A stretch of 64,000 bases of DNA from Candidatus Bathyarchaeia archaeon (GTDB lineage Bacteria; Patescibacteriota; Microgenomatia; PFEM01; JAFGMK01), in the NCBI GenBank assembly GCA_035529595.1, contig DATKWK010000023.1, positions 601 to 64,600 on the forward strand. The letters run 5' to 3'. How positions within the stretch are numbered: the first letter of the stretch is position 1; every line of letters starts with the position of its first letter. The notes beneath the pieces were generated by a model. The model did not search any database, was not told the origin of the DNA, and worked only from the letters and a program-made list of their open reading frames with translations. Shown here one piece after another: positions 10,855-43,861 of this stretch. A program made the position numbers and the translations under genes.

Positions 10855-11958
10855 CTAATGATTGCCAATTATTCTGGCGACGCCGAAGTTAAGTGAGTGG
10901 TCTGTTCCTTGAAGGCTGCCGGTTCCGGCAATTGCTCCTTGCCAGAATTCACCTCTCGGGGAGGAAAAAAGCTGATTCTCGACAGTCGGTTGGAGAATGA
11001 TCTTCAAATCAGGTTCAGCAACAGTTAGCTTGTAAGCAACCGTAACTCTTTTTCCGCTTGGCGCGGTCCATTGTGCCAAGGGTTCAAGATTAAATTCTGC
11101 AGTCTCAAATTGATTTCCGGTTTCGTCTACGAAACTAAAATATTTATCGGCAACAGAGCCGTCCTGATTGAAGGTTTGCCCAAAAACCGCTTCCGTATGA
11201 TTATCAAACTGCAACCAGAACCACTCATTTGGAGAAGACACAAAGTTGAAATTAGCCAGTTCTTGGTCGGATAAATTCAGCCACTGGTGGTCGAGCCAGG
11301 AAGTTCCGGTAACAGTATGAATGAGATGGGATTGACCTCCGATACTTAAACTACCGCTGGCCTCCTGTCGGGAAAAGGCGTAATAGTGGGCATTGATAGC
11401 CATCTCTTTGATAAATAATGGGACAAATTTATTCCTATTTACAGTTAAAGGGGGTTTTTGGTTATTAAGCATTAATTCAAAAGTCGCTAGCGGTGAATTG
11501 CAGGCAAGTTGGTAAGTGAGTGGCCCCAGCCAGTTACCGGTTAATTTAATTTGATCTTGGCTGTCTTTTCCTCTGAACTCCAGCTGGAAGTTTTCCGGAT
11601 CGTAGGTTATTTCCCCTTCAGCGAATTTTTGGACATTTGCGCCTGAGTCAATATCGGTGAGGGATAATAAAAGCAGGCCATTGGCTTGTTTGCCCAGCTT
11701 GAATAAAGTCAAGAAACCTGAATACCAAGAGATGTCTGTTTTTAGCTTAAAATTAGCCGACCAAGATTCGAGATTGCTTTCTTGGTGGAGGCCTTCGTCT
11801 TCGGGAAAGTTTATTTCTCCGTTCGTGAAGGGGTAAGCTTGCCAAGATTTAGCCCGTGGAGCGGAATACTGGCGCCGTGGTAACCAGAGGTAAACCAGGG
11901 ATAAGGTGAATGCGGCCGAAGCGAGAAAGGTGATGATCGCAAAAAGTGTTTTCTTCAT
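10855..11958 (-). CDS. secreted AttH/CrtC-like lipocalin-domain protein
   Basis: Signal peptide. The motif FPEDEGLHQESNLESW resembles the AttH FPxDHGxH...EWWY region. Confidence 0.45.
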   Translation of the reverse strand: MKKTLFAIITFLASAAFTLSLVYLWLPRRQYSAPRAKSWQAYPFTNGEINFPEDEGLHQESNLESWSANFKLKTDISWYSGFLTLFKLGKQANGLLLLSLTDIDSGANVQKFAEGEITYDPENFQLEFRGKDSQDQIKLTGNWLGPLTYQLACNSPLATFELMLNNQKPPLTVNRNKFVPLFIKEMAINAHYYAFSRQEASGSLSIGGQSHLIHTVTGTSWLDHQWLNLSDQELANFNFVSSPNEWFWLQFDNHTEAVFGQTFNQDGSVADKYFSFVDETGNQFETAEFNLEPLAQWTAPSGKRVTVAYKLTVAEPDLKIILQPTVENQLFSSPRGEFWQGAIAGTGSLQGTDHSLNFGVARIIGNH

Positions 11959-18469: not shown

Positions 18470-20728
18470 CTACGGCCGTGGTTGTGGGAGGGGTCCAGTG
18501 CGTGCGACGGTGGGTAGATACAGCCACGCCGTAGGCGTGAAGGGAGGTGTGTTGCGCACGACCAGGTCGGCTGTGACCTCCTTGACTATCTGGCCGTTGT
18601 CCCCCTGGAGATGGAAAGTGACCGTTCCCTCTGGGGCTTCTGAGGCGATGCGGACGCCCTCAAGCGGCATAAGGAGACCACAGGTATTGTTGACGTGGGT
18701 CCACCTCGTGGGTCCCTGAACGAAATCCAGAAGATTTGCCGGTTCGGTCTCGGTCCACAGAGAGACTGTTATAGGCGGAGACGGGCAAAACCGCTCCGAG
18801 CCTGCATTTCTCTGGATCCAGTCACCGCCGGGAACGGTAGAACTGGCGTAGAGGTAGAGCTCCAATCGGAACTGGAACTGGTCGGGGTAGAACTGTAGCC
18901 ACTCCATGTCCGTATCCTGGGAACAGGTGTTGTACACATCGGCGTGCCATGCGTACCTGTTCCACTCCGTAGTGATGGGGTACTCGAATGAGTATACTGT
19001 CCAACCGGGTTGTCCTTCGATACAGAAAGCCATTTCGCAGGCGCCCGGCTTGCAGCGCGAAGAACTGTTACAGATCCGAACGGACTGGAGCAGGTCGGGT
19101 GGCCAATTTCCGTTGACTTTCAGGATTGGCCGCTCTCCGAACGGGACCTTCCAGATGCCTCCTTCGAGAAACGCGCGGGAGAGGAAGTCGAGCCTATTCT
19201 CGAGCTGGAGGCCGCTGATGCAGGCCTCGTCGAAGAAGACCCATTCGTAGTCGGCATCCGACCAGGTCTCTCCAGAATCGGTAACCCCCGACACTGACAC
19301 GCGATTGACTTGGTGGCTGTGAGCTGTCCCATTGAGTTGTACCTGGAACTGACACTCGTAGGTATTGCCTGCCTCGACAATTTGGGGAACGGAACAGGTG
19401 CTATCGTCGATCTTGGTAACGTCCCCAAATGCCGAGTCTACGATGGACTGTAGGTGTAGATTCTGGTCTCCGGTTGCCCCTACTACGATCGTAAAGGAGA
19501 CCAAGCCGCCGGGCTGGGCCAGATGGTCTGGGTTGGCAGTCTTGTAGACCTGGACCAGCTCCGGGAGGTCACGGACATCCATTGTAACAACGGCCGTGTC
19601 TTCACCATATCCATTGGTGATGGTATAGGTGAAGGTGTCTATGCCGACCCAGTGTGGTGCCGTTTCTCCTCCGGGAGGAGAGTAGACGAGGTGACCCTCG
19701 TCGTGAATATAGACCTCACCATGTTCTGGTTGCCCGGCCGAGACGAGAGTGAGATTGCTTCCGAACCCCGGGAGGTCGTTTTCCCAAGGCCAGAGCAACA
19801 TTGTCCCGTTGTTTCTGACGATATACAGGTCGTCGATCGCAATGGGCCGGATCAGGTCGGCTGCAACTGTAGGTGGCGTATCGTAGTAGCGGTTGCCGTA
19901 GATATCACGCAGGTCGTTGCATTCCTGGTTAGTGTCAACGTACCAAAGGTCAGCACCCGCAGCCGTCATGGTGGCGACTAGCGAACTGACTGACCTAGTC
20001 GAGCAGCCGTCTCCCAATGCTCCGATCGAACACCTGTATCCTGGATTTGACACGCAGATTCCCCAGGCATGGAGGAGCCACTGGTCGAGATAGGTCCATC
20101 CGCTTGTTGATGCGCCTTGGGCATTGGTGATGGCTATACTGGCGCTCAGTGGTGTTGTAACGGTGACGATCTCTCTGAACGTTGGGTCACCGTTGTAGAA
20201 CCAGGCACCTGCCCGGTCCTCTGTGTGCAGATGAGCTGCGGTCTCCGAGCCGAGCCGGAGCAGACGGTTAAGATTCTCCCGCTCGACAGAACCTGACCCA
20301 TCGAACCCGAACAGGACCAACGTCGGGGTCGATTGCTGCATAGCCGCGAGAACTGTCAGCGCTGGCCGCGAGGGGACCTCGATCACGAACTCGTAGACCT
20401 CGTAGGGCAGCCCCGCTAGCGTCTGTTCGACACGCGTCTCGCAGTTGCCGGCAACCTCCGGATTGAGCGCCTTTACTGCGGCACAGATTTGTTCAACCTT
20501 CTGTGCCAGGCTTGTGCCGGAGGCTAAGTTGATCGTACGTGTGACCGTTTCCCCGGGGGTGGGGACGGTCACTTCGGTCTCGAACCCAAGGGTGGGCTCG
20601 GGATCCTGGCTACGGGGGGCAGCCAGGGCGGATAACGGGTGGATCCCAAGGATCCACACCAGGCCTAACGTAAGAGCGAGGCCTAGGGAAATGACGATTA
20701 CCAGGCGCAGAAGCGCCTTGGTGTTCAT
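18470..20728 (-). CDS. secreted vWA-domain giant protein (MIDAS motif FGFDGSGS) with a large beta-rich C-terminal region
   Basis: I assign the start at ATG 20728, which lies 8 nt after a perfect AGGAGG; the track ORF extends to 20884. There is a signal/TM segment at the N-terminus. The gene is GC-rich, about 55-58% in hand-counted samples. Confidence 0.6.
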   Translation of the reverse strand: MNTKALLRLVIVISLGLALTLGLVWILGIHPLSALAAPRSQDPEPTLGFETEVTVPTPGETVTRTINLASGTSLAQKVEQICAAVKALNPEVAGNCETRVEQTLAGLPYEVYEFVIEVPSRPALTVLAAMQQSTPTLVLFGFDGSGSVERENLNRLLRLGSETAAHLHTEDRAGAWFYNGDPTFREIVTVTTPLSASIAITNAQGASTSGWTYLDQWLLHAWGICVSNPGYRCSIGALGDGCSTRSVSSLVATMTAAGADLWYVDTNQECNDLRDIYGNRYYDTPPTVAADLIRPIAIDDLYIVRNNGTMLLWPWENDLPGFGSNLTLVSAGQPEHGEVYIHDEGHLVYSPPGGETAPHWVGIDTFTYTITNGYGEDTAVVTMDVRDLPELVQVYKTANPDHLAQPGGLVSFTIVVGATGDQNLHLQSIVDSAFGDVTKIDDSTCSVPQIVEAGNTYECQFQVQLNGTAHSHQVNRVSVSGVTDSGETWSDADYEWVFFDEACISGLQLENRLDFLSRAFLEGGIWKVPFGERPILKVNGNWPPDLLQSVRICNSSSRCKPGACEMAFCIEGQPGWTVYSFEYPITTEWNRYAWHADVYNTCSQDTDMEWLQFYPDQFQFRLELYLYASSTVPGGDWIQRNAGSERFCPSPPITVSLWTETEPANLLDFVQGPTRWTHVNNTCGLLMPLEGVRIASEAPEGTVTFHLQGDNGQIVKEVTADLVVRNTPPFTPTAWLYLPTVARTGPLPQPRP

Positions 20729-20730
20729 AT

Positions 20731-21175
20731 GTTCCTCCTTAGTATCTGGTTCCGGTAGCCTCCGATGTTTTGGAGTCCCACCTACCGGAAAAAAGTTGAT
20801 CTTGTGAAACCAGCAGTCCGATGAAAAGCAAAATCGTATTTTGCCATCCCACGCTCCAAGGAGTCCACGCCTTCGGCGGGACACCTTGCAGGAGGGATTA
20901 GCGCTTTTTGCTCTTTACCGGACTGCCGGTTGGGATCAGACTTTTTTCATTTCACCTCGGAGGAGCAAGATCGTTGTCTTGCACCATCCGAGGAGAAAAT
21001 CACTCGGAGGAATTCGCCTCACAACCCTTATGTCCTAATCCCTAAACCCTATATTTTGTAGCCTTTCAAGAAACCAGCTGTTTTGCTGTTTTTTCGACTG
21101 GCTCTTCGCATTACGAAGAACAGTCAAGCAAAACAACAAAGGTAACTTGAAATTGTTATTTCAAGTTGTCAAGGT
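20731..21175 (-). promoter_or_regulatory. promoter/operator plus ~450-nt conserved 5' leader of the vWA gene (copy A)
   Basis: Blocks 20731..20820 and 20913..21175 are near-identical to 24808..24898 and 25108..25330. The promoter region has TTGACA next to the 22-bp perfect palindrome ACTTGAAATAACAATTTCAAGT. Confidence 0.5.
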
Positions 21176-21962: not shown

Positions 21963-24802
21963 CTAGCGTGTCACTTGGACGGTGGCGGTCGCGGTATAGA
22001 CCCGACCGCTACTGTTGGACGTCACCGTCCAGATCGCTGTAAACGGCCCGACGTGGTCCGGCGAGCCGGTCCAGGCGTCCCAGTAATTGGTCGAACCGTA
22101 CCAGGCTCCCATCGGGAGCTGACCGGCCGGCCAGCACTGCCAGCCGTCGGACAAGGGGGGAGTCACACAGAGTTGCATGGCCACGACCAGGTCGTGACCG
22201 GAGATGTTGGAAACTCCCCACTGCCAACGGGCCTTAGAGCCTGGTGGAGTGACTACGTTTGGGTTGGGGCTGTTGGTACCCTTGACCCAAACCCTGAGTT
22301 CGGCCGGGGGCGGGCCGGGCGGAGGCCCGAAGATAATGGGTAGCCAGATTCGCGCAACACAGCCTGTGCAAGGTTGGACTGGTAGTCGCGATGGCCATTC
22401 GTAGGCGCCGAGGTCGATGCCACTGCCGTACGGCCTGCTTGCTCCGTAAGCGTCGTGATCGACGATTATGGGTGCCTTTGGATGGTCGCGGCAACGACTG
22501 TCCTTGCCGAGGCTGTAGTCGCCGTTGGCGGGATCGACGAAGAACGGATCTCCGTCGTATAGATCGCCCGAGTCCCAGGTCATTGGCCAGATGGGTCCCT
22601 CCCAACCAACACCTGGCCCAGGTTCAGGCCGCCAGCTGATGTAGTATAGTTCAGTGTAGCTGTGCCCGTCAGCTCGTGCTGCCAGTGTGTTGTTGTCGAG
22701 AATGGTGTTGTACACTTTGACGGTGGGCGCTCCACTGGAGTATTCGATCGCTTTGAAGCCGATCGGGTTATCCACCAAGGTGAGGTGAGCAACCGTTAGT
22801 ACCGATCCGCTATGAACCAGGCGCAGTTGTAGTCCGGCGTCGTTTGCCTTAGCAACGACATCGTTCACGATCTCGAGGTTGCCTGGGATCACAGCATAGA
22901 TGCTGGAGCCCCAGCTCGAATCTGCAAAGTCGCCGATCGAGACGATACCGTCGAGGCTTCCGTTCTGCCGGATACTTCCAACACAGGCTCCGAAGCTATC
23001 GGCATAGTTGTCCTGGCAGCGGATGCGGAAGACGCGGATGTTGCCTGGTCCAACCATGAGGCCTCCGCCTGAGGCGCCGCTTGACCGGTTGTTCTCGAAA
23101 GCACAGTCTTGGACTATGCCTTCGGTGATGTCTAGCCCGCCGCCGGTGAAGCTGGCGATGTTGCCAACGAAGTGGACGTTACGGATCTCGGCTCGGATGC
23201 CGCTAGCGACGTAGATTCCACCACCGGATTCCAAGTTGCCCATTGCCGAGGCATCACCGTTCATGATAGTGAGACCATCGATGGTGATGTCGGGTGTTTG
23301 CATAGCGGCCGCGTAGGCGAGGGAGTCGAACGGCGTGCCGTCGGCGTTGAGCACTTCGTGGGAAATGACTCCCCAGTGCTCGCCATCGCCAGCGAGAGTG
23401 CCGACTTCGGTCTCGGTAGCTGCACCGCAGGAGAGGCTGCTTCAGGAGCAACGTAGATCACTCGGCCGCGGCCTTGGGCATCAAGTGTTGTAGTGTAGGT
23501 GCCCGGTTTCCGGACCGAGAAGTCAGCCGAGTAGCCGCCCAGCAGACTCAAGTGCTGATCTACGAAGACCACTTGCGAGATGGTTTGCGTAGTAGCTTGG
23601 AGCTGCACTGCAGCTAGAAGGGTCTCGACCTCGTGTTGGCGCTTGGTATCGACCAACAGCCGCCAGTCGTCGCCAAGGGCAGCGAGTATGGACGCGTCGG
23701 TTGCGGCTGACTCAGTTCGCGACTGGACGTCGGTGTAGACGCCGCCGGCGATTCGGATCTCAGCGTCCGACTCGGCTCGGTTAACTGCCTGCTGTACTGT
23801 CCGACACGGATTCGTTGCGTCACTGCAGTCGTTGCTATCGTCGCTACCAGCAGTGCTCACGTAGCAGATTTGACAGGTTGGCAGTGGGATTGTCTCAACC
23901 GTCGTAGTCACCACGACCTCATCCCACGATCCCTTTGACCCATCGGTGCGGACTGTAGCTGTGATTGTGCCGATGAAGCTAGGGTTCACCGTGACGACCA
24001 CCGTGGTTTGCCACGTCATGGTCGGCGGCAGATCCGTAACCGTCCATGTGTGGCTGCCACTCGGGCTGACTTGCGACGGCAAGGTCAGAGTGAGGTGGAA
24101 GGTGTCGGTGATCCCGCCGACGTTGGCCAGTTGAACTGTGTAGGTCAGACTTCCGCCGGACGTGACCGGATCGGGTTGGGCCAGGAGGTCAACGTCGACA
24201 TTCGGTTGGTGATTCCGAAGGTCGTCGATAACCTTACCCTCGTCGGGTGGTGGTTGATAGTAATACTCATCCACGCACCCGAGGAGGTCGGTTCCCCCCT
24301 CCTGGTCTTGGATGTAGGCCGCCATAGTATAGCCCTGTGCCCGAAGCTCGTTCAATCGGACGCAGGCTTGGGCCGCGTCGGTACACCAGCCATCGCCGAC
24401 GAAGATGAATCCTCGAGTGCCAGCCCAGGGCAGCCCATCGAACATGGCAACACCGGCCTCAATTGCCGGCAGGCAGTAGGTGTCACCAGTGGGCGTGACT
24501 GTACCGGCTACGCGCAGGAACGCGTCTGAAGCGGTCTGGGGATCGGTCAGCAGCGTGACCGTGTAAAAACGATCCCCGTAGTAACCGCCCCCGGCGACTT
24601 CGGCCTCGTCGGCGTTCAATTCCAAGGCCAACCGGCTGGCGAACCCCAGCCCCTCTTGAGTGTCAGTGAAGGTCCGGCTCCCGGAGGAGTCAACCGCCAC
24701 AAACACACCCATCTTGGGTGAGGCGGCCAGCACGGCCATAACGCCCAGAGCCATCAGGAGCCCCAGGGTGAGAGCGAGAACTAAACGCATCTTTACATTC
24801 AT
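21963..24802 (-). pseudogene. second secreted vWA-domain (FVAVDSSGS) plus parallel beta-helix giant protein, split by a frameshift near 23440 into ORFs 23261..24802 and 21963..23354
   Basis: The upstream ORF ends in a low-complexity out-of-frame tail. The downstream frame is open from a TGA at ~23447 and reads like a beta-helix (GGGIYVASG...NVHFVGN). Same RBS and leader as copy A. Confidence 0.5.
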
Positions 24803-24807
24803 TCTGT

Positions 24808-25330
24808 GTTCCTCCTAAGTATCTGGTTCCGATAGCCTCCGATGTTTTGGAGTCCCACCTACCGGAAAAAAAGTTGATCTTGTGAAACCAGCAGCCCGGG
24901 AAAAAACAGAAGCAAAATTAAATTATGTGATTAAGTCATTCCGAGGGTCGACTATTCGACCCGAGGAATCTAGCGAAGCGTGAATTATTATTCTTATTAT
25001 CGATTTTTACGCTAATGCTGGATTCTTCTCCCACAAAATGCGGGATCAGAATGACCGGTTCTTGTTGCTAATCACTAAAAACTGATCACTGATGGACTGC
25101 TTCTATTCTTTACCGGACTGCCGGTTGGGATCAGACTTTTTTCATTTCACCTCGGAGGAATTCGCCTCACAAACCCTAGACTCTAGTGTCTAATCCCTAA
25201 ACCCTATATTTTGTAGCCTTTCAAGAAACCAGCTGTTTTGCTGTTTTTTCGACTGGCTCTTCGCCTAACGAAGAACAGTCAAGCAAAACAACAAAGGTAA
25301 CTTGAAATTGTTATTTCAAGTTGTCAAAGA
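24808..25330 (-). promoter_or_regulatory. promoter/operator plus leader of the vWA gene, copy B (interrupted by MITE copy B)
   Basis: Sequence identity to copy A. It lacks a 46-nt internal duplication present in copy A. Confidence 0.5.
24935..25055. mobile_element. MITE-like palindromic element, copy B (GTCATTCCGAGGGTCGA...CAGAATGAC)
   Basis: Terminal inverted repeats. It shares the internal TCTAGCGAAGCG motif with copy A and is inserted in the leader. Confidence 0.5.
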
Positions 25331-25656
25331 GCATTGTTGAGAGCAATGGTTAAGAGCAAAGTTCTCTAGCCTTGCGCCCAACCAGCCGATCTCAAGTTGA
25401 TAAAAAGATACTTGCATAACGCTTTCTGAGATAGTCGAATAAATAGACGACCGAGTCGTCCTGAAAGCGATTTTTCAGCATCCACCAATTCATAGTCCTA
25501 TAGTATTCTTAATCTCCTTTGGAAGCTTGATTGGAAAGTCGAAAAAACTAGCAAAAGAGGCCTATTTTTGACAAAAAGATTGACATTTGTTAAACATTAT
25601 GGGATAATCTTACATATAAAAATAAGAGCGGATTTATTTTAAGTTTATATAGGTTA

Positions 25657-26934
25657 ATGGGGGAAATACCAAAATATTTCTATCAATATTATAAGCCTGA
25701 ATTAATCAGGGTTAGTCGCCTGGTTAAAAATGGCCAGGCGGTCATTTTTGTGGGCATTAACGGCATCGGGAAAAACCTCCTGGCCGGTCAAATTTTATCC
25801 AACCGCTTTAGAAAAGAATTTTTAGGCCAGATTAAAACTCATCTGGTTTTTTTGGATTTCAAAGATAAAGCCGCGCCATCCCGGGAACAATTGTTGCAGT
25901 ATTGGCTGTCGCAAACCGCTCAGGCTTTAAAAATAAAGGCGGAAAAACTTAAGCCCCTCAATGAATTCACTTTTTATTCCCAGATGGAGAGGTTGATAAG
26001 GACGGTGGCAGCGGAAGAAAAAATTTGTTTCTTGGTTCTAGACGCGCAACAAATCTTATCTCAAAGTGAACAGTTTTTTGATTGTTTGATTAACCTCAAA
26101 TATTACTCTTACGGTAAAATCTCTTACGTCTTCTTGGCCGAACCCCGGATTTTGGCTCATCCGAATGCCGGATTGCAGCGGTTCATCCAGCGGCTGACGA
26201 ACAATAAATTTTCGTTTTTGAGAACCTTTGATCAAAAAACTTCTCTGGCCGATATTCGACGCGAGGAGAAATTATTTCAAACCAGCTTTGGGGGTCAGGA
26301 GAGAATGATTTTGGAACACTCTCACGGTTTGCACGGCCTGATCAGGGCCTTTAGCGTCTTTTTAAGAAAAAATCCTCAAGTAAAAGATATCAGGCAGCTT
26401 AAAAAAATTCTCTTTGCCAGCCAACTGTATTGCTTTTGGATAAGGGAAATTTTGGAGAGTTTGCCGGCTGAATCATTGCGGATTTTAAAAGCGGTTAGCC
26501 AGAACCGCTCGGAAATCAAACGCTTTAAAAAAAGCCTTTATCTTCAGTGGCTGTTTGATTTAGGGCTTTTAAAAAAGGACGGCCAGCTTAAGCAGCCTTT
26601 GTTTTTACCGGTGTTGGAAAAAATGACGGTGAGTACAAAAAGCCATCAACCGTTAATTAAGTTGGCAGTCGATCAATTTAGCTTTTCCGGAGAAAAAGTA
26701 AAGTTAACTCAAAAAGAGTTTTTAGTCTTACGGACTCTTTATAAGAACAGAGGCAAAGTGGTCAGTTTTGAAAGAATCGGCAATGTCTTGTGGTCAAACA
26801 AACCGGATAATTTTTCCCTGTGGGCGATTAGCCAAGTCATCCGCCGTTTGCGGAAAAAACTCAATTATTATTTTATTAATCCCAAGACCATCTCTTCTTT
26901 AAGAGGAGAGGGTTATTCTTTGGAGGTGAAATGA
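25657..26934 (+). CDS. P-loop ATPase (Walker A GINGIGKN) fused to a C-terminal OmpR/PhoB-type winged-helix DNA-binding domain
   Basis: The C-terminus LTQKEFLVLRTLYKNRGKVVSFERI...VIRRLRKKL...SLRGEGYSL matches trans_reg_C. The N-terminus has Walker A and hhhhD Walker B. Confidence 0.6.
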   Translation: MGEIPKYFYQYYKPELIRVSRLVKNGQAVIFVGINGIGKNLLAGQILSNRFRKEFLGQIKTHLVFLDFKDKAAPSREQLLQYWLSQTAQALKIKAEKLKPLNEFTFYSQMERLIRTVAAEEKICFLVLDAQQILSQSEQFFDCLINLKYYSYGKISYVFLAEPRILAHPNAGLQRFIQRLTNNKFSFLRTFDQKTSLADIRREEKLFQTSFGGQERMILEHSHGLHGLIRAFSVFLRKNPQVKDIRQLKKILFASQLYCFWIREILESLPAESLRILKAVSQNRSEIKRFKKSLYLQWLFDLGLLKKDGQLKQPLFLPVLEKMTVSTKSHQPLIKLAVDQFSFSGEKVKLTQKEFLVLRTLYKNRGKVVSFERIGNVLWSNKPDNFSLWAISQVIRRLRKKLNYYFINPKTISSLRGEGYSLEVK

Positions 26935-29132
26935 GATCACCGGAAGCTACTGCTGAGATAAAAAGCCGAATGATACCTCTTTTTATGAGAGATGCCTATA
27001 GGCAGACCGACGGTTGGTCAAAAGAAGCGCTTGATCAATTACCGCATCTCCTTACTGACGGAGATTTTTTCGATTTATTAAGAAGAGGTTTAGATGGTCT
27101 CAATAAAGAAGTTTGGCCAGTTTACCAAGCTTTCAGCGATGAAGCCAGAGTGGTTATTGCTGATCCTGACTATTTTGTTCAGCCTCGGCAGAGGAGTGAA
27201 GTCTTGAGACATTATGTCAGGAGACTCGGTCGTTCCTGGTGGTTAAAGGATGAAACCCGGGAGAATTATGAAAAGGTTTTCGAGAAAGACCAATACGGTT
27301 ATAGCTGGGCCGCGGGAAATCTTTGGGAAGGTTTAGGTTACCAGGTTTTAATCGATGCCCAGGATGAAGAAAAAGGCATTGTTTTAAGAGCCGATGAAGT
27401 CAGTATCAGCCGGGATTACTTAATTGGTTATTTGAATAATTATTTTAGCCGTTTCCGGTGTTTGAATATTCCCGAAAGAGTTCAGGCTTGTTTTGAGGCG
27501 ATTAACCGAAACCTTTGGCCGCTTGGCCGCCAGCCTCGCGACCGGCTGTTTTTTGATACGCCGGCGGTCTTTTTCTGGCTGGCCAGCGCCGGGTTTTTGT
27601 GTGAAGAAGGCCGGGTGACCGATTCAATGGCCTTTGAAAGCGGCTTTCTCAATCTTGAAGAGAGACTGGCGGCGACTAAAAAGAGACTGGCTGAATTAGA
27701 TCTTTTTAGCCAGCCTGATTTTCAAGAAAAGTATTTCCAGTTATTTGCCTTTATCAGTGATTATCTTTCTGATCACGGCCGGTTGGAGGAATTTGAGAAT
27801 TATCTTTCCTGGGTCGGCGACAGGACCGATCCTGATTTTGTTGCCCGGCTCTTTGGGGATGTTTATGTCAGCAATATCTATCCCCGAGGCGACCTTCCTG
27901 GGCTTTTGGGCAAAACTTACTTACTATCCAGGAAATTAAAAGCCGCCCTGCCTAATGATTCAGAGCAGAGAGTTGGTTTATCGGAGATTGAGGCTGATTT
28001 ATGGCGGCGTTGTCCGGGTGATATTTATCCCTTAAGACCGGAGCTGGTCAGTCCCGAACTGATTGCCCGCTTTCAGGAAAATCCGGCGGAATTTTGGCCG
28101 GAAATGTTTAGGCAGTTGGTGGCCTTGGAGATGGAAAGATTATTTAAAGGCCAGCCTCGGGTGAAAGGAATTTACGAAACCGCTGCCAATAGCGAGCGGA
28201 AACTGCTGCCTGACCTGATTGTTATTTTTGGCCATATTTTTGGTTTGGAGCCAAGCGAAGTTATCCGTTTGGCGGCGATCGGTTGCTTTGACTGGGCCGC
28301 GATTATTGAAAGAGATGACACTATTGATGATGGTGGTCTGAGGAAAGGCAGAAGACCGATGGCTGCTCAGGAAGGTGTCAGTCGGACGATTCGAATGACG
28401 ACGATTGCTCAAGCAGCAGCGACGCGGAACCTTTTGCCGCTTTGGGGCAAGGCGGCGACTGACGATTATTGCCAGATGGTCCAGCAGATGTATGATGCGG
28501 ATATGGAACTGGAAGAGACCGGTTTGGCGGCACCGGATGACCAAATCTGGCAGGCAATGGATAGACTGAATAGCGCCTTTAGCTGGTTTATTAACTGTAT
28601 GGCTGGTGTCAGAGCCAGGGATTTAGAGTCCGAAGCCGGGCAGCGCTTTATTGAAGCTGGTCAATCTTTCAGCGAGTTTATGTCCAGGATCAATATGATC
28701 GCCCAGCTGAAGAACGATTTCGAAGATTGGAATCAACCGCCTGGCAAGAAAAAACCGGGGGAAGATTTTGGTCATAAATTTAGCTTGCCACTACGGGAAT
28801 TACTAAAGCTGGTTAGTCCTAAAGAAAGGGCAACTATTCTTGAGGCCTATGCGAATCCAAAAGATGAGGAAATTAAAAGGCAAGCCCTAGAAATTGCCAA
28901 ACTATACCAGCCGCAAGTAATTGCCGCCTTAAAGCCAAGGGTCGAAGAAATTTACGAAAAAGCCAGATTGGCACTGGAAAAAGGATTTGAAGCGATTGCT
29001 GGTTTCCGACCGATGAATGGCGGCCCAGATCGGGTTAATCAGACCTACCAACAGCTTTTAGGGGATTATCTTGATAGCTTGCGAGATAGTTTATGTCAGT
29101 TAGGTAAGAGTCCTCAGGGTCAGCCGGTGTAA
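26931..29132 (+). CDS. 733-aa protein with a C-terminal trans-polyprenyl diphosphate synthase-like domain and a ~400-aa unknown N-terminal region
   Basis: First Asp-rich motif is DDTIDDGGLRKGRRP. A degenerate second motif NDFED is followed by PGKKKPGEDFGHKFSLP (the GKP.G.D...GK.TLP pattern). The start overlaps the upstream regulator (ATGA). Confidence 0.55.
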   Translation: MRSPEATAEIKSRMIPLFMRDAYRQTDGWSKEALDQLPHLLTDGDFFDLLRRGLDGLNKEVWPVYQAFSDEARVVIADPDYFVQPRQRSEVLRHYVRRLGRSWWLKDETRENYEKVFEKDQYGYSWAAGNLWEGLGYQVLIDAQDEEKGIVLRADEVSISRDYLIGYLNNYFSRFRCLNIPERVQACFEAINRNLWPLGRQPRDRLFFDTPAVFFWLASAGFLCEEGRVTDSMAFESGFLNLEERLAATKKRLAELDLFSQPDFQEKYFQLFAFISDYLSDHGRLEEFENYLSWVGDRTDPDFVARLFGDVYVSNIYPRGDLPGLLGKTYLLSRKLKAALPNDSEQRVGLSEIEADLWRRCPGDIYPLRPELVSPELIARFQENPAEFWPEMFRQLVALEMERLFKGQPRVKGIYETAANSERKLLPDLIVIFGHIFGLEPSEVIRLAAIGCFDWAAIIERDDTIDDGGLRKGRRPMAAQEGVSRTIRMTTIAQAAATRNLLPLWGKAATDDYCQMVQQMYDADMELEETGLAAPDDQIWQAMDRLNSAFSWFINCMAGVRARDLESEAGQRFIEAGQSFSEFMSRINMIAQLKNDFEDWNQPPGKKKPGEDFGHKFSLPLRELLKLVSPKERATILEAYANPKDEEIKRQALEIAKLYQPQVIAALKPRVEEIYEKARLALEKGFEAIAGFRPMNGGPDRVNQTYQQLLGDYLDSLRDSLCQLGKSPQGQPV

Positions 29133-29373
29133 GTTCTTCATTGGTCGGTCATGGAGTTTTTATTCATAATTGAGTGTCGATATGCCGGTGATTTCATATT
29201 GGGCTTGAACTTTCTTGACAAAACATTATTAACCACTAATCTTCTTACCTTGGGCAGATATGGACTACTGGTATAAGCCATTTTAAACATCCTTTCCGGC
29301 AAGTTATAGAACCAATATTTGATTCTACCAGTGTTTCCAAGGTATTGAGTAATTACATTAAGAGCCTATAGTA

Positions 29374-29402
29374 TTGACTTAATAACCTATTTTGGTTATA
29401 AT
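29374..29402 (+). promoter_or_regulatory. near-consensus sigma70-type promoter (TTGACT, 17-nt spacer, TATAAT)
   Basis: Read directly from the sequence. It lies ~440 nt upstream of the kinase-like gene. Confidence 0.45.
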
Positions 29403-29848
29403 TAGATTAGCTTTAGAGATCTTGGATTTCGTGAAGTTTTGGGGTCTCTAAAGAAGAGACCTATTTTAATAGGCGAAAGCTCTTTGACAATTGAAGATGG
29501 TTGTAGGGAGCTACCCCGGCACACTTCCGGTTATCCAATCAAGTTTCTGATCATCCATCTAGCTTGGATATAAAGGATTTTTTTGGTAATCGGAAAAGTG
29601 CGTCGGGATCGTCTCCCTACAACAAAGACCTTCTTTCTGCTGCTTGAGATTGGTTGGTGGCTTTTTGCAGCACAAGGGGACTTGTGTTCAGGAAGCCATC
29701 GGCCAATTGAAAAGCGGAAAAAGAAAGGAGGATTTGAAACCGCACCTTGAATGGGTCAAGGAAGTAAATTGGTAAATTAAAAGAAATGGACCCCAGTGAT
29801 GGCGAGGGTTGGAGTTTAAAACAGATCAAGTGCAAGTGAAGGAGTGAA

Positions 29849-30757
29849 ATGTCTAAGCAACAGTTGTGTGTTTCCGAAGTTCTGCCCGGTGCGTTCGTGG
29901 GCGTATCCTCCCAAACTATTCCGTGGGAGGAATTACCCGATCCTTTTGCACTTCCAATCCTCTCGGGAGCAACAGGAGTGGAGAAGGTGAATCTGGGGAA
30001 AAAGGCTCGGATGTGGCGAGCTGATTTGCCTTGCGGTCAACCGGTCCGTGTCAAGCAGGAGTCCCGTCTCGACCCTTGGTGGCACGAGGTTTGGTGTCTC
30101 AAACTCTTGCGCGATTACGACGCCGGTTTTCCGAGGTTGCTGGAAGTTCGAGAGGACGCACGGGTGATGGTTGTCACCGAACTCCCCGGTCAGAATACTG
30201 ACCATTATAGGGGGCCAGGTGTGGATCCCAGAACCCGTGTATCGATCCTGGAGCAGCTCGCTTTGCGGATGGAAGAAATGGCCGACATTGGTGTTGCCCA
30301 CGCCGATGTTTGGTGGGACAACGAGCTTTGGGATCCAGCGTCGGAAAGGCTCAGTATGGTGGACTTCGGCTCCAGTGCCCTCGTAGGTGATAAGCCTTTG
30401 GTGGCTATCCAGGGCCATCGTAAGAACCGAAATTCCAGGACGTGTCCTGGAATTCCTCACCATCCACCGGAGACGGTGTGGGAGTGGGAGCTCCCTCTTG
30501 TCGACGTCAACCGCTTCTACTACGCGGTGGAAGTGTTGGCTTTCGTCTGGGGAGAGGCTGTTGTCAGGCAAATTGCCTACACAAGCGAACTCCGTGTCAT
30601 GGTACCCTGGTTTGTGAGGCAAATGATCTCCCCCAAGACACCGGCCGAGGCAGGCTTACTAGAGGCTCTTTGTACGGCTTTAGACCCGCGCCCGGACCAT
30701 CGTGAAGCCAGCATCCCTGAGATGCTCGACCTCGCAAAGGAGGTGCTGATGCAGTAA
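29849..30757 (+). CDS. protein-kinase-like fold phosphotransferase; GC-rich
   Basis: VAHADVWWDNELWD resembles a catalytic loop and SMVDFGSS resembles a DFG motif. The gene is about 60% GC in one hand-counted sample. Confidence 0.45.
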   Translation: MSKQQLCVSEVLPGAFVGVSSQTIPWEELPDPFALPILSGATGVEKVNLGKKARMWRADLPCGQPVRVKQESRLDPWWHEVWCLKLLRDYDAGFPRLLEVREDARVMVVTELPGQNTDHYRGPGVDPRTRVSILEQLALRMEEMADIGVAHADVWWDNELWDPASERLSMVDFGSSALVGDKPLVAIQGHRKNRNSRTCPGIPHHPPETVWEWELPLVDVNRFYYAVEVLAFVWGEAVVRQIAYTSELRVMVPWFVRQMISPKTPAEAGLLEALCTALDPRPDHREASIPEMLDLAKEVLMQ

Positions 30758-41343: not shown

Positions 41344-41549
41344 CCTTGTGATACCCCGCTGCTGCAAGCAGTATCCGCAGTGGCGGGGGTATCCGAAAGG
41401 AAAAAGACGAGGAGCTAGAAAAAAGCAAGATCAGCTCATTTCGAGCTGAACCCTTGATTTTCTCTTTCTTCCTCGATCTTCTGCAACGTGCTGTCTTTTT
41501 CCATTTCTTAAAGCCGATTTTCCAACTTGGAAGTGTTAAAATACATATT

Positions 41550-42686
41550 ATGGTTATTGGTATTGATGCCTCGCGGGCTTTTATAAAACAACGGACTGGC
41601 ACGGAAAATTATTCCTACCAGCTGATTAAGGCTTTAACCAAGATCGACCGCCAAAACCGCTATTTTTTGTACACCAAACCGGATTCGAAAGTTGATTTTC
41701 CGTTACCTCCGAATTTTCAGCTTAAATCGATCTCTTTTCCCCGTCTCTGGACGCAACTGGGTTTGGCTAGCCGGACATTTTTGGATCCGCTTGAGGTTTT
41801 ATTTATTCCCGCCCATACCTTGCCGCTAGTCAGGAAACCCGGTTTAAAAACAGTGGTGACGATTCACGGTTTGGAATACGAATATCTGCCGGAGTATTAC
41901 CGCTTTCCCCAGCGTTTGCTTTTGAACCGCTCGACCGAATATGCGGTCAGGCACGCCGACCGTTTGATCGCCGTTTCCCAGTGGACCAAAAAAGAGCTGG
42001 TAACTCGCTTAGCCGCCGATCCGAAAAAGATCACCGTTATCTACGAAGGAGTCGACCAAGATAAATTTCAAATATCTCGGCCAGAGGCCGATCGTCCTCC
42101 AGACGAAAAAATTAAAAACATTAAAGAAAAATATCGCATAAAAGGGGATTATGTTCTGTTTGTAGGTACCATCCAGCCCAGGAAGAATCTCGAGCGGTTG
42201 ATTGAAGCCTTTTCTTTGCTGGCGCCATCATATCCTGCTCTGGATTTGGTTCTGGCCGGTAAATTAGGTTGGTTGTATGATAAAATCCTTAAAGCGCCCC
42301 AAAAATTCAAGGTCAGGAAGAGGGTTCAATTTCTGGGCCATGTGTCGGATGGGGATTTGGCAGTTCTTTACCAAAAAGCGACAGTTTTTTGTCTTCCCAG
42401 CTTAACCGAAGGCTTTGGTCTGCCGGTGCTTGAAGCGATGGCCGCCGGTACGCCGGTCGTAGCGGCCAAGACCGGTGCCTTGCCGGAAATTGTCGGTAAA
42501 GCCGGACTCTTGATTGATCCTTTAAAGGTTAGAGAAATCGCTGGCGCAATCGGATTGATTCTGGAAAATAAAACTTTAGCTGAGGGGTTACGGGGACAGG
42601 GTTTTACCCGGGTCAAGCAGTTTTTCTGGGGAAAAACCGGCCGCCAAACCTTAAAAATTATTGCTTCCTGGAATATATTATTATAA
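41550..42686 (+). CDS. GT4-family glycosyltransferase
   Basis: EGFGLPVLEAMAAGTPVVA motif. The start is chosen at MVIGIDASRAF; the track ORF begins at 41454. Confidence 0.75.
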   Translation: MVIGIDASRAFIKQRTGTENYSYQLIKALTKIDRQNRYFLYTKPDSKVDFPLPPNFQLKSISFPRLWTQLGLASRTFLDPLEVLFIPAHTLPLVRKPGLKTVVTIHGLEYEYLPEYYRFPQRLLLNRSTEYAVRHADRLIAVSQWTKKELVTRLAADPKKITVIYEGVDQDKFQISRPEADRPPDEKIKNIKEKYRIKGDYVLFVGTIQPRKNLERLIEAFSLLAPSYPALDLVLAGKLGWLYDKILKAPQKFKVRKRVQFLGHVSDGDLAVLYQKATVFCLPSLTEGFGLPVLEAMAAGTPVVAAKTGALPEIVGKAGLLIDPLKVREIAGAIGLILENKTLAEGLRGQGFTRVKQFFWGKTGRQTLKIIASWNILL

Positions 42687-43045: not shown

Positions 43046-43861
43046 ATGGACAAAAAACATCTGAGCTTCGATAAAATTTTGGGTTTTGAGATTGTTAGCA
43101 GCTTACAGGAGAGATTGCTAGACTTTGTGCGTAGTCAAGTGAGGGAAGGCCAGCACCTGTTTATCGTTACCCTCAATCCGGAGTTTGTTATAGCCTCGAA
43201 AAATGATGCTGATTTCTTAAAAACCATCCACAAGGCCGACTTGGTTATTCCTGACGGTGTTGGCTTGGTTTGGGCCGGTGAAGTCTTAAAAGAGAGAGGT
43301 GTTTTGAGGAAAATTTTAAAGGGTTTTAGGGTTGGTATGGCTGTCTTGTCGGGAAATCATAAAAGGCAGGTGATTGCCGGGGTCGAGTTAATGGAAAGCC
43401 TTTGCCGATTGGCCGCTAAAAATGGTTGGTCGGTTTATCTTTTGGGCGCCGGGCCGGGTATTGCCCAAAAGACACTGGCGGTTTTAAAAGTTCGTTATCC
43501 CGGTCTTCGGGGCTGGGCGGCTCATGGACCAAAACTCAAAAGGCAAAACTCAAAATTTAAAACTCAAAACTGTTGGATTAAGGATATTAACCAGAAAAAA
43601 CCAAATTTTCTTTTCGTCGCTTTGGGGATGAAAAAGCAAGAGCAGTTTATCAGGCAGAATTGGTCGGTTTTGAAAGTTAACTTGGCGATAGGTGTCGGCG
43701 GTGCTTTTGACCAAATCGCGACGCCGTCACTAAAACCTCCAGGAGGCCTGCAACGGATCGGACTTGGCTGGTTATATCGTTTACTTCGTCAGCCGCGGCG
43801 TTGGCGACGACAACTTACACTTCTGAAATTTATCTGGCTGGTATTAAGAGAAGACGAGTAG
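43046..43861 (+). CDS. WecB/TagA/CpsF-family glycosyltransferase
   Basis: LFIVTLNPEFV...DLVIPDGVGLVWA, with the typical size. Confidence 0.7.
   Translation: MDKKHLSFDKILGFEIVSSLQERLLDFVRSQVREGQHLFIVTLNPEFVIASKNDADFLKTIHKADLVIPDGVGLVWAGEVLKERGVLRKILKGFRVGMAVLSGNHKRQVIAGVELMESLCRLAAKNGWSVYLLGAGPGIAQKTLAVLKVRYPGLRGWAAHGPKLKRQNSKFKTQNCWIKDINQKKPNFLFVALGMKKQEQFIRQNWSVLKVNLAIGVGGAFDQIATPSLKPPGGLQRIGLGWLYRLLRQPRRWRRQLTLLKFIWLVLREDE

Follow-up and report, generated by a model that had tools for sequence, protein, structure and literature searches.

A Microgenomates gene cassette pairing an ATPase-winged-helix regulator with a divergent isoprenyl diphosphate synthase-fold protein

The DNA considered here, a stretch of 64,000 nucleotides from contig DATKWK010000023.1 (assembly GCA_035529595.1, positions 601 to 64,600; hereafter the window), carries two adjacent plus-strand genes whose products are annotated as 'hypothetical' or 'helix-turn-helix domain-containing' and nothing more. 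The upstream gene (gene 1) encodes a P-loop ATPase joined to a C-terminal winged helix-turn-helix (wHTH) of the OmpR/PhoB type. The downstream gene (gene 2) encodes an orphan N-terminal region followed by a domain with the fold of trans-isoprenyl diphosphate synthases (IPPSs). A first-pass annotation made from the sequence letters had placed both open reading frames (ORFs), and its coordinates are exact (see table). It had also proposed that the two are translationally coupled, and they are: the start codon of gene 2 overlaps the stop codon of gene 1 as ATGA, behind a Shine-Dalgarno sequence that lies inside the end of gene 1.

The pairing is not peculiar to the window. Neighbourhoods of gene 1 homologues and loci from genome and metagenome scans were surveyed by scoring downstream ORFs with hidden Markov models (HMMs) made separately for the N- and the C-terminal half of gene 2 family proteins. 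A gene 2 relative lies directly downstream of gene 1 in 17 independent cassettes, all in Woesebacteria/Gottesmanbacteria-type assemblies (the window, L002, L005, L007, L009, L011a, L012, L013, L015, L016, L017, L019, L020, L021, L023, L024 and L027). At the junctions of the other cassettes the genes overlap or are separated by 1-5 nt. This conserved pairing, found by a neighbourhood survey of the kind suggested in the first-pass annotation, shows that the two genes are functionally linked; they form an operon.

Gene 1 carries its DNA-binding domain at the C-terminus. Pfam Trans_reg_C (PF00486) matches residues 345-422 from end to end of the profile (1-77 of 77) with an E-value of 3.9e-15 and 56.1 bits against a cut-off of 26.2, and it is matched in all 35 gene 1 homologues. 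The gene 1 family profile likewise matches the DNA-binding domains of response regulators in the PDB, down to E 1e-10. NCBIfam matches are restricted to residues ~333-425 and fall far below their cut-offs. No Response_reg match marks a receiver domain in gene 1; the N-terminus is a P-loop ATPase. For the window protein the ATPase matches are weak, at E ~0.03 (AAA_14, 14.8 bits against 27; AAA_16, 15.4 bits against 32.6). Across the family, AAA_14 matches 32 of the 35 homologues with a best E-value of 2.7e-6, and weak matches to NPHP3_N, nSTAND3 and nSTAND6 are scattered among them.

Structure prediction gives the same picture. An AlphaFold model of gene 1 built with 35 homologues has a mean predicted local distance difference test (pLDDT) score of 92, with a short flexible linker before the wHTH. 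Its best Foldseek matches in the PDB are two archaeal Walker ATPases, 2qen (E 8e-9) and 2fna, followed by Orc1/Cdc6 with subunits of the origin recognition complex (ORC) and, after these, by plant NB-ARC (NRC) proteins. The N-terminal P-loop and C-terminal OmpR/PhoB wHTH proposed at first pass are thus upheld by profile and fold alike, as is the remark that this domain order is the reverse of that in SARP/AfsR regulators. In gene 1 the wHTH is C-terminal, Pfam matches no BTAD and similarity to EmbR is confined to the wHTH (E 0.05). The Walker B aspartate, D129, is present in 35/35 homologues and Q131 in 33/35, with no acidic residue after D129. Because the motif reads D-A-Q and has no acidic second residue, a nucleotide-binding switch with slow hydrolysis is suggested.

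The C-terminal domain of gene 2 had been called polyprenyl-synthase-like. Homology to that family stands, but the domain is not a canonical member of it. Pfam polyprenyl_synt (PF00348) matches residues 427-654 at E 1.4e-5 with 24.9 bits, below the gathering threshold of 27, and reaches E<=0.1 in only 8 of 22 gene 2 family members; NCBIfam has no match to gene 2. The HMM searches put forward at first pass therefore place Trans_reg_C over its cut-off and polyprenyl_synt just under, and homology comes from the family profile instead. That profile aligns with the geranylgeranyl diphosphate (GGPP) synthase 1wy0 across ~300 columns (E 7e-8). With the gene 2 model, Foldseek returns polyprenyl, GGPP, octaprenyl and solanesyl diphosphate synthases (3oyr, 9imr, 4jyx) at E 3e-6 and a template modelling (TM) score of 0.73 on the target. 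Because family profile and fold both find these enzymes, the homology of the C-domain to polyprenyl synthases is secure.

Residues of the active site were counted over 28 non-redundant gene 2 family members, with roles in binding Mg2+, the allylic diphosphate and isopentenyl diphosphate (IPP) presumed to be those of their equivalents in Escherichia coli farnesyl diphosphate (FPP) synthase (FPPS; 1RQI). The first-pass description of an intact first aspartate-rich motif (FARM) and an altered second one (SARM) is accurate for the window protein, which reads DDTID and NDFED at these sites. The second FARM aspartate is kept in 7/28 members and is Asn in 13, so the window protein belongs to a minority with the full DDxxD. 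At the first position of the second motif Asn is found in 22/28, and a canonical second DDxxD is accordingly absent from the window protein. D612 of the G-x-D block is present in 28/28 members and K/R616 of the [KR]-h-[TS] block in 23/28. Of the equivalents of the IPP-binding residues, namely the Lys/Arg of GGKRxR and the His that precedes the FARM, R423/K424 are present, but L426 (I/L/M/E in the family) and E460 (variable) stand where canonical residues would be expected, and the position of the 'KT' lysine is occupied by N547-S548, with no Lys. Equivalents of E. coli FPPS R69 and H98 in the IPP site and of the 'KT' lysine are not conserved across the family. The diphosphate/Mg site is thus under purifying selection inside a protein that otherwise diverges fast (~26-29% identity).

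The accompanying suggestion of a terpene-synthase-like protein does not survive. No Terpene_synth_C match was found in gene 2 with Pfam, and a class I terpene cyclase was rejected as a candidate because the NSE/DTE motif, (N/D)Dxx(S/T)xxxE, is absent: NDFEDWNQP has D at position 5 and P at position 9. A chimera of cyclase and prenyltransferase, raised by a Foldseek match to fungal variediene synthase, was also rejected, as the superposition has a root-mean-square deviation of ~30 A and a TM score of ~0.4, cyclase motifs are missing and hhalign of the N-domain against the C-domain gives a probability of 0.5%.

The first ~370 residues of gene 2, part of the ~400 described at first pass as unrecognised, have no match in Pfam, NCBIfam, PHROGs, PADLOC, the PDB or BFVD. 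PHROGs holds nothing for the cassette beyond the wHTH domain of gene 1, and phmmer with the N-domain retrieves only 5 distinct other members. The model of gene 2, built with 22 family members, has a mean pLDDT of 81; residues 1-67 are predicted to be disordered. In this structure prediction, of the kind proposed at first pass, the N-domain lies mostly above 80, and Foldseek gives no match for it. The N-domain is almost devoid of conserved polar residues and is the fastest-evolving part of the protein. It is not a duplicate of the C-domain, to which it shows no similarity (hhalign probability 0.5%), and it is absent from family members of 373-392 aa. Since two such members, L009/P0049 (392 aa) and P0046 (373 aa), consist of the C-terminal domain alone, the core of the cassette is taken to be the regulator and the IPPS-fold domain, with the N-domain as an accessory. 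A further protein from the representative search, P0053 (343 aa), joins a WecG/TagA-like N-terminal ~85 aa to an IPPS-like domain without the second motif; the gene call is probably chimeric or decayed, and the protein was left out of the counts.

A promoter of the form TTGACA-17-GATAAT had been noted upstream of gene 1. It is real, with 11/12 matches and an upstream TG in a promoter scan (25580-25608), and its conservation in related cassettes shows that it is not a chance occurrence. What had been missed is that it belongs to a larger operator in which TTGACA occurs twice in tandem, the second copy being the -35 hexamer. When upstream regions were aligned by anchoring on the promoter, an architecture of ~110 bp proved common to 10/10 anchored cassettes, whose regulators are 38-76% identical and whose surrounding DNA is unalignable. 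The order is GCTTGA(T/C), a CAAAA box, TTTTTGACAAAA, 2-3 bases, TTGACA, 17 bp and TATAGGATAAT. The last element, on the -10 side, is kept in 9/10 aligned cassettes. The repeat keeps a constant distance from both the distal GCTTGAT box and the -10; the distal box stands at its fixed distance in all 10 anchored cassettes and is present also in L019, L020, L021, L023 and L027. The other cassettes with upstream DNA (L019, L020, L021, L023, L024, L027) are built alike, their repeats being in a register of 11 or 12 bp.

The repeat is specific to the cassette. In the 64-kb window, exact TTGACA-N6-TTGACA occurs as a single copy, at 25568-25585; with up to 2 mismatches it occurs 6 times against 5.1 expected, so that the exact copy alone stands out. 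Each fetched related locus (10-17 kb) likewise holds the exact repeat once, always just upstream of the gene 1 homologue, and over the ~250 kb of sequence fetched the operator motif was seen at the cassette's own promoter only. Tandem TTGACA as a general promoter feature was considered and rejected, given one occurrence per locus and per window, always at the cassette. OmpR/PhoB winged helices classically bind tandem direct repeats that are spaced by about one helical turn and overlap the -35. By analogy, the tandem TTGAC repeats are probably the operator of gene 1's own winged helix.

Other features of the upstream DNA were recorded. The ~850 bp before gene 1 (24803-25656) contain no ORF of >=60 aa and include several short inverted repeats, for example at 24938-24969. 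A degenerate second operator half lies at 25389-25417, 171 bp upstream of the real one (TTGATAAAAAGATACTTGCAT compared with TTGACAAAAAGATTGACAT).

Table. Coordinates of the cassette features in the window
Feature	Position	Strand	Detail
Distal box GCTTGAT	25525..25531	+	43 bp upstream of the first TTGACA; candidate third regulator site
Tandem direct repeat TTTTTGACAAAAAGATTGACA	25564..25585	+	TTGACA at 25568-25573 and 25580-25585; 12-bp register
-10 region TATGGGATAAT	25598..25608	+	hexamer GATAAT at 25603-25608, 17 bp after the -35
Gene 1	25657..26934	+	425 aa; P-loop ATPase core ~1-190, helical lid and winged-helix-like bundle ~191-330, wHTH 334-425
Walker A GINGIGKN	25753..25776	+	residues 33-40; G33, G38 and K39 invariant
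Walker B aspartate D129	26041..26043	+	context hhhhD-A-Q; no catalytic Glu after the Asp
OmpR/PhoB-type wHTH	26656..26931	+	residues 334-425
Translational coupling	26922..26934	+	GGAGG Shine-Dalgarno 26922-26926 inside the end of gene 1; ATG 26931-26933, TGA 26932-26934 (ATGA)
Gene 2	26931..29132	+	733 aa; orphan N-terminal region, then IPPS-fold C-terminal domain
Orphan N-terminal domain	27132..28034	+	residues ~68-368; alpha/beta with two beta-hairpins ~88-223, helical bundle ~242-368
Trans-IPPS-fold domain	28053..29105	+	residues ~375-725
First Asp-rich motif D462-D-T-I-D466, then R471-K-G	28314..28328	+	D462 27/28, D466 26/28, R471 25/28
Pseudo-second motif Q592-L-K-N595-D596-F-E-D599	28704..28727	+	N595 22/28, D596 26/28, D599 26/28
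Possible operon terminator, hairpin then T-run	29442..29470	+	310 nt past the gene 2 stop; assignment to the operon uncertain

The cassette has a narrow distribution. Gene 1 has ~40 homologues at 40-70% identity, the named ones belonging to Woesebacteria and an 'ACD' groundwater bacterium. Genome scans confine its relatives to metagenome-assembled genomes (MAGs) of Woesebacteria and Gottesmanbacteria, plus one MAG labelled Gammaproteobacteria. Gene 2 is harder to trace: a word-indexed protein search, whether with gene 2 alone or with a 25-sequence family alignment, returns the query itself as sole match. Its homologues were obtained among the genes adjoining gene 1 homologues and by exhaustive HMMER comparison with 1.84 billion representative proteins, of which only 23 match at E<=1e-3, with 23-32% identity. 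Plasmid records searched with gene 1 yield matches to the wHTH domain and nothing more.

The archaeal label that NCBI gives to the source contig of 846,852 nt, 'Candidatus Bathyarchaeia archaeon', is doubtful. The window encodes bacterial genes (MreB, an OmpR-type domain and ribosomal protein L1) and has sigma-70-type promoters. Because MreB, the OmpR-type wHTH and these promoters are present, and because relatives of the cassette all come from Woesebacteria or Gottesmanbacteria, the window most likely derives from a Microgenomates genome of the Candidate Phyla Radiation (CPR). A related MAG, GCA_964354025.1 (L005, L007, L014), is labelled 'uncultured Gammaproteobacteria' and, like the window, looks like a misclassified CPR genome.

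Cassettes occur in multiple copies, three in one Gottesmanbacteria MAG and two in GCA_964354025.1, and on one contig two stand side by side. The regulator may not be tied to one partner. On the minus strand of L011 (3663-6486), a 420-aa gene 1 paralogue has Trans_reg_C and a P-loop of the KAP/NPHP3_N-like kind, but the gene coupled to it encodes an unrelated orphan protein of 519 aa in place of an IPPS-like partner. The promoter of this paralogue carries a variant repeat, TTTGACAATCTGACAAT, which suggests that regulators of the gene 1 type can combine with different partner genes. Gene 1 proteins are on average 48% identical in pairwise comparison, against 29% for the C-domain of gene 2 and 26% for its N-domain; gene 2 evolves about twice as fast as gene 1.

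Flanking genes vary among cassettes and include BrnT/CopG, HEPN/NT, Gp49/HTH, MazE/PIN, PhdYeFM/PIN and DUF433/DUF5615 modules and an IS200-type transposase; in 7/12 contexts a transposase or toxin-antitoxin (TA) modules are found no more than 5 kb away. A conserved third gene was sought among upstream and downstream neighbours and none was found, apart from synteny within the L009/L011 lineage. The first-pass annotation had pictured a scarce isoprenoid enzyme of a reduced genome. That picture is at odds with the data: a cassette that is multi-copy, fast-diverging and lineage-restricted, in variable neighbourhoods beside toxin-antitoxin genes, behaves as an accessory module. One Woesebacteria cassette, together with a BrnT/CopG pair and a 290-aa ORF, lies between rpsG (S7) and fusA (EF-G) (L002/L003/L004, 6600-12350), an insertion that breaks the elsewhere universally conserved str operon. 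In six contexts (L009, L011, L013, L020, L021 and the P0037 contig) a gene for an EamA-family transporter is found within a few kb of the cassette, usually in the arrangement hisS-EamA ... rpmE-prfA with variable TA cargo between, which looks like a lineage-specific integration hotspot.

The pair is best explained, tentatively and with a little less than even confidence, as a Microgenomates-specific accessory cassette of two genes that is self-contained, regulates itself and encodes an enzyme for prenyl transfer to an acceptor other than IPP. Gene 1 would be a nucleotide-switch regulator in which an ORC/Cdc6- or STAND-like module binds ATP, probably with slow hydrolysis. Its wHTH would bind head-to-tail to the tandem TTGAC repeats over its own -35, and also at the distal CTTGAT box four helical turns upstream. 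Occupancy of the repeats would most likely repress, with a change of nucleotide or ligand state bringing relief; PhoB-style activation is the alternative. Autorepression is favoured because the -35, spacer and -10 are already near-consensus.

Gene 2, translationally coupled to gene 1, would be the output of the system. Its C-domain is predicted to ionise a prenyl diphosphate and to prenylate an acceptor such as a protein, the side chain of a peptide or a small aromatic molecule, and the orphan hypervariable N-domain could serve in acceptor or target recognition or in docking to gene 1. A non-IPP acceptor is proposed because residues for Mg2+ and the allylic diphosphate are kept, IPP residues are lost and the second motif is an N-D-x-x-D pseudo-SARM of the ComQ/StheQ type. 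The biological role would then lie in conflict or interaction, not in core lipid metabolism, as paralogue expansion, rapid divergence, variable neighbourhoods and the one regulator paralogue with a swapped partner suggest. A more far-reaching version of the proposal, which is unlikely to hold in full, is a CPR-specific, self-regulating system that prenylates proteins or peptides or diverts prenyl diphosphates, with the N-domain selecting a macromolecular target in the host, a phage or an episymbiotic partner.

Several observations weigh against a cassette of this kind built on a non-IPP prenyltransferase. The window's own regulator deviates from its family at A161 (family Ser) and at Walker A position 40, which is N in the window protein, T in 24/35 homologues and T or S in 26/35, so that its ATPase may be impaired. 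Most gene 2 members have DNxxD and have lost the 'KT' lysine, which contacts the allylic diphosphate in canonical enzymes, and on these residues the domain could bind a ligand without catalysis. The 45 sequence matches of the family profile in the PDB are all to IPPSs or to terpene-synthase prenyltransferase domains, none of them to Ord1, and ComQ and StheQ were compared by published motif; the ComQ-like motif may be convergent, a product of parallel evolution or coincidental, and membership in a ComQ-type family is unsupported. No conserved small ORF with a C-terminal-proximal Trp (ComX-like) lies within 900 bp in 16 cassettes. PADLOC-DB v2 has no match to gene 1 or gene 2 at E<=0.1, viral contigs hold no relative of the cassette and phage genomes no match to gene 2. 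The neighbourhood signal from TA modules is weak, CPR genomes being generally rich in them, and the syntenic site between EamA and rpmE/prfA (L31/RF1) seen in one lineage is also compatible with plain vertical inheritance.

Loss of catalytic residues leads to a second reading, in which gene 2 is a pseudoenzyme co-sensor: its IPPS-fold domain would do no more than bind a diphosphate-containing ligand, for example a prenyl diphosphate or an intermediate of a lipid carrier, and would modulate gene 1 through the N-domain, and the real targets of the regulator would lie elsewhere in the genome. This is doubtful. A first motif that is degenerate in 21/28 members, the loss of several canonical catalytic residues and a cassette without any other conserved biosynthetic gene all speak for it, and the stoichiometric co-expression afforded by translational coupling would suit a complex. 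STAND-type regulators such as MalT are, moreover, controlled by protein partners and small ligands. Yet the Asp pairs, R471 and D612 are conserved near-completely, beyond the usual need of ligand binding, some partners (L009, P0046) are the C-terminal domain alone, and confinement of the motif to the cassette's own promoter gives no sign of a wider regulon.

Defence against phages or mobile elements would be a more specific form of the role left open by the prenyl-transfer proposal. The ATPase-wHTH protein would sense infection, and the effector would deplete or divert prenyl diphosphates or prenylate a target of the invader or host, with recognition by the N-domain. Weak nSTAND3, nSTAND6 and NPHP3_N matches and an NB-ARC/ORC-like fold fit such a sensor; paralogue expansions, the tandem cassette pair, the regulator with a swapped effector and the hypervariable N-domain also speak for this reading, as do the adjacent TA modules and transposase and the cassette inside the str operon. 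Set against these points, PADLOC gives no match, the cassette is not on viral contigs and the literature searched offers no precedent for a defence effector of prenyltransferase fold. The regulator, too, has a classic promoter-bound design and no fused effector, and an island signal is inseparable from the high TA background of CPR genomes. A dedicated defence system is rather unlikely.

Regulated housekeeping isoprenoid synthesis, with gene 2 as a divergent FPP, GGPP or polyprenyl diphosphate synthase for lipid carriers or membranes under the tuning of gene 1, fits the data least well and is quite improbable. By sequence and fold the C-domain is indeed closest to chain-elongating IPPSs, and the window copy keeps the full DDTID, RKG and GxD..K.S. 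A WecG/TagA-type transferase, which depends on polyprenyl-linked substrates, is encoded in the window as well. A housekeeping synthase would, however, be expected to be single-copy, slow-evolving and widespread, whereas this family is multi-copy, diverges faster than its regulator and has only 23 representatives in 1.84 billion proteins, in one CPR lineage. It scores below the Pfam gathering threshold and matches no NCBIfam model, the first SARM aspartate is replaced by Asn in 22/28 members, and IPP-site residues and the KT lysine are lost. A housekeeping synthase is thus unlikely, and gene 2 is probably not chain-elongating. A replication or maintenance module of an integrated element, with gene 1 as an ORC/Cdc6-like initiator on iteron-like repeats, has in its favour the fold similarity and the direct repeats in an AT-rich upstream region, but is highly improbable given two or three short repeats that coincide exactly with a sigma-70 -35 box, a C-terminal wHTH of the OmpR transcription-factor type, and housekeeping flanks with no integrase, partition or other mobile-element genes alongside the pair.

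The surroundings of the operon in the window were also inspected. Two islands of 55-63% GC (18500-21000 and 22000-24800) stand out from a background of ~36-44% GC and encode large minus-strand proteins of 804 aa (Big_9/DUF7507 Ig-like), 463 aa and 513 aa (signal peptide). They could have been acquired horizontally or stem from a join in the assembly; L001, a Logan assembly of the locus made independently, begins at ~25298, just past the second island. Downstream of gene 2, a 716-bp gap (29133-29848) has no ORF of >=60 aa and no Rfam match. Within it lies a promoter close to consensus, TTGACT-17-TATAAT (29374-29402), with the hairpin and T-run listed in the table 40 nt further on; the segment 29374-29470 could produce a very short transcript or hold the operon terminator. 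The hairpin and T-run are not kept at other cassettes, where unrelated genes follow directly. Next comes a plus-strand 302-aa ORF (29849-30757) with the protein-kinase motifs HADVWWDN (HxDxxxxN) and VDFGS (DFG). It has no Pfam match and a weak match to PADLOC PD-T4-6 (E 1e-3), and is not conserved beside other cassettes. Elsewhere the window encodes a CrtC/lipocalin-like protein (10855-11958, minus strand), a GT4 glycosyltransferase (41454-42686, plus strand) and the WecG/TagA-family transferase (43046-43861, plus strand). Because the substrates of WecG/TagA enzymes are sugars linked to polyprenyl diphosphate, polyprenyl carriers are presumably in use in this organism.

The pair appears to be undescribed. 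No defence model, Pfam family (for the N-domain) or paper in the literature searched covers these proteins, and that literature contains neither a polyprenyl-synthase-like defence effector nor an N-terminally extended IPPS from CPR bacteria. What is new is the architecture of gene 1, the N-domain of gene 2, their pairing and the operator; the building blocks are of known kinds. The prevailing view of CPR bacteria, or Patescibacteria, is that they lack the bulk of lipid and secondary metabolism and live attached to other cells. A multi-copy, diversifying cassette confined to one lineage and centred on a prenyl-diphosphate-binding enzyme would point to unexplored CPR chemistry, be it prenylation of proteins, peptides or small molecules. 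It would also offer an unusually clean regulatory system, in which a single small ATP-switch regulator, an ORC-like ATPase joined to an OmpR wHTH, serves a single conserved operator and a single output gene. If its role lies in defence or interaction, the cassette would add the prenyltransferase fold to the known effector classes, as the first such effector of a conflict module.

Among known systems, the closest folds to gene 1 are the Arch_ATPase/AAA_14 proteins 2qen (PAB2304) and 2fna (SSO1545) and Orc1/Cdc6, which match over ~360 residues at E 8e-9 to 1e-6. They have in common with gene 1 the ATPase core, the helical lid and the winged-helix-like domain. They differ in having no extra C-terminal OmpR/PhoB wHTH and in a Walker B motif that reads D-E where gene 1 has D-A-Q. 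We know of no pairing of these archaeal Walker ATPases or Orc1/Cdc6 with an IPPS-fold gene. In design, MalT/LAL and SARP/AfsR regulators are comparable to gene 1, since both fuse a P-loop STAND/AAA+ switch to a DNA-binding domain and use direct repeats at or upstream of the -35. SARPs use an OmpR-type wHTH as gene 1 does, but place it at the N-terminus with a BTAD (followed, in AfsR, by NB-ARC and TPR), so that gene 1 has the reversed order and no BTAD. MalT/LAL proteins have the ATPase N-terminal and the DNA-binding domain C-terminal, as in gene 1; they carry a LuxR-type HTH and long sensor repeats, whereas gene 1, at 425 aa, has neither LuxR HTH nor TPR. By this analogy, gene 1 functionally resembles MalT/LAL with another DNA-binding domain.

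Gene 2 can be set beside three kinds of enzyme. Fungal prenyltransferase-terpene synthases such as variediene synthase (9e2i) are of similar size, with two helical domains and a C-terminal prenyltransferase, and Foldseek aligns 570-670 columns. Only one domain superposes, however, and the N-domain of gene 2 has beta-hairpins and neither DDxxD nor NSE/DTE. Chain-elongating trans-IPPSs (PF00348; 1wy0, 3oyr, octaprenyl pyrophosphate synthase) are homologous to gene 2 and have a common fold, with aligning blocks at DDxxD (in the window copy), R-(R/K)-G, Q-x-x-[DN]-D-x-x-D and G-x-D...[KR]-h-[TS]. Unlike them, gene 2 has Asn as the first SARM residue, has lost the equivalents of R69, H98 and the KT lysine, bears an N-terminal extension and is multi-copy and rapidly diverging.

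The third comparison is with ComQ, StheQ and Ord1-XiaM, which like gene 2 have an IPPS fold in which D1 and D5 of the first motif are kept and the IPP-condensation machinery is not conserved. In StheQ, a member of the ComQ family, metal is bound by FARM D85/D89 only, and the pseudo-SARM N215-D216-x-x-D219, with Q212 one turn ahead of it, is essential for Trp prenylation, activity falling by 98% in N215D, 96% in D216A and 83% in D219A (bioRxiv 10.64898/2026.08.29.745113). Another indole prenyltransferase of IPPS fold that has a pseudo-SARM is Ord1 (PMC12510300). The pseudo-SARM is defined as N-D-x-x-x with a Gln one turn ahead, a pattern that gene 2 displays: Q212-x-x-N215-D216-x-x-D219 of StheQ corresponds to Q592-x-x-N595-D596-x-x-D599 of gene 2. 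ComQ systems include a gene for the ComX Trp peptide and the ComP/ComA two-component pair, and gene 2 cassettes have neither; gene 2 further differs from ComQ-type enzymes in its extra ~370-aa orphan N-domain, in the DNxxD of most members and in its occurrence in CPR bacteria rather than Firmicutes, Chloroflexi or actinomycetes. ComQ is likewise encoded beside its signalling and regulatory genes. With gene 2, the recently recognised pseudo-SARM group of IPPS-fold enzymes, represented by ComQ, StheQ and Ord1, would gain a further phylum and a domain architecture new to it.

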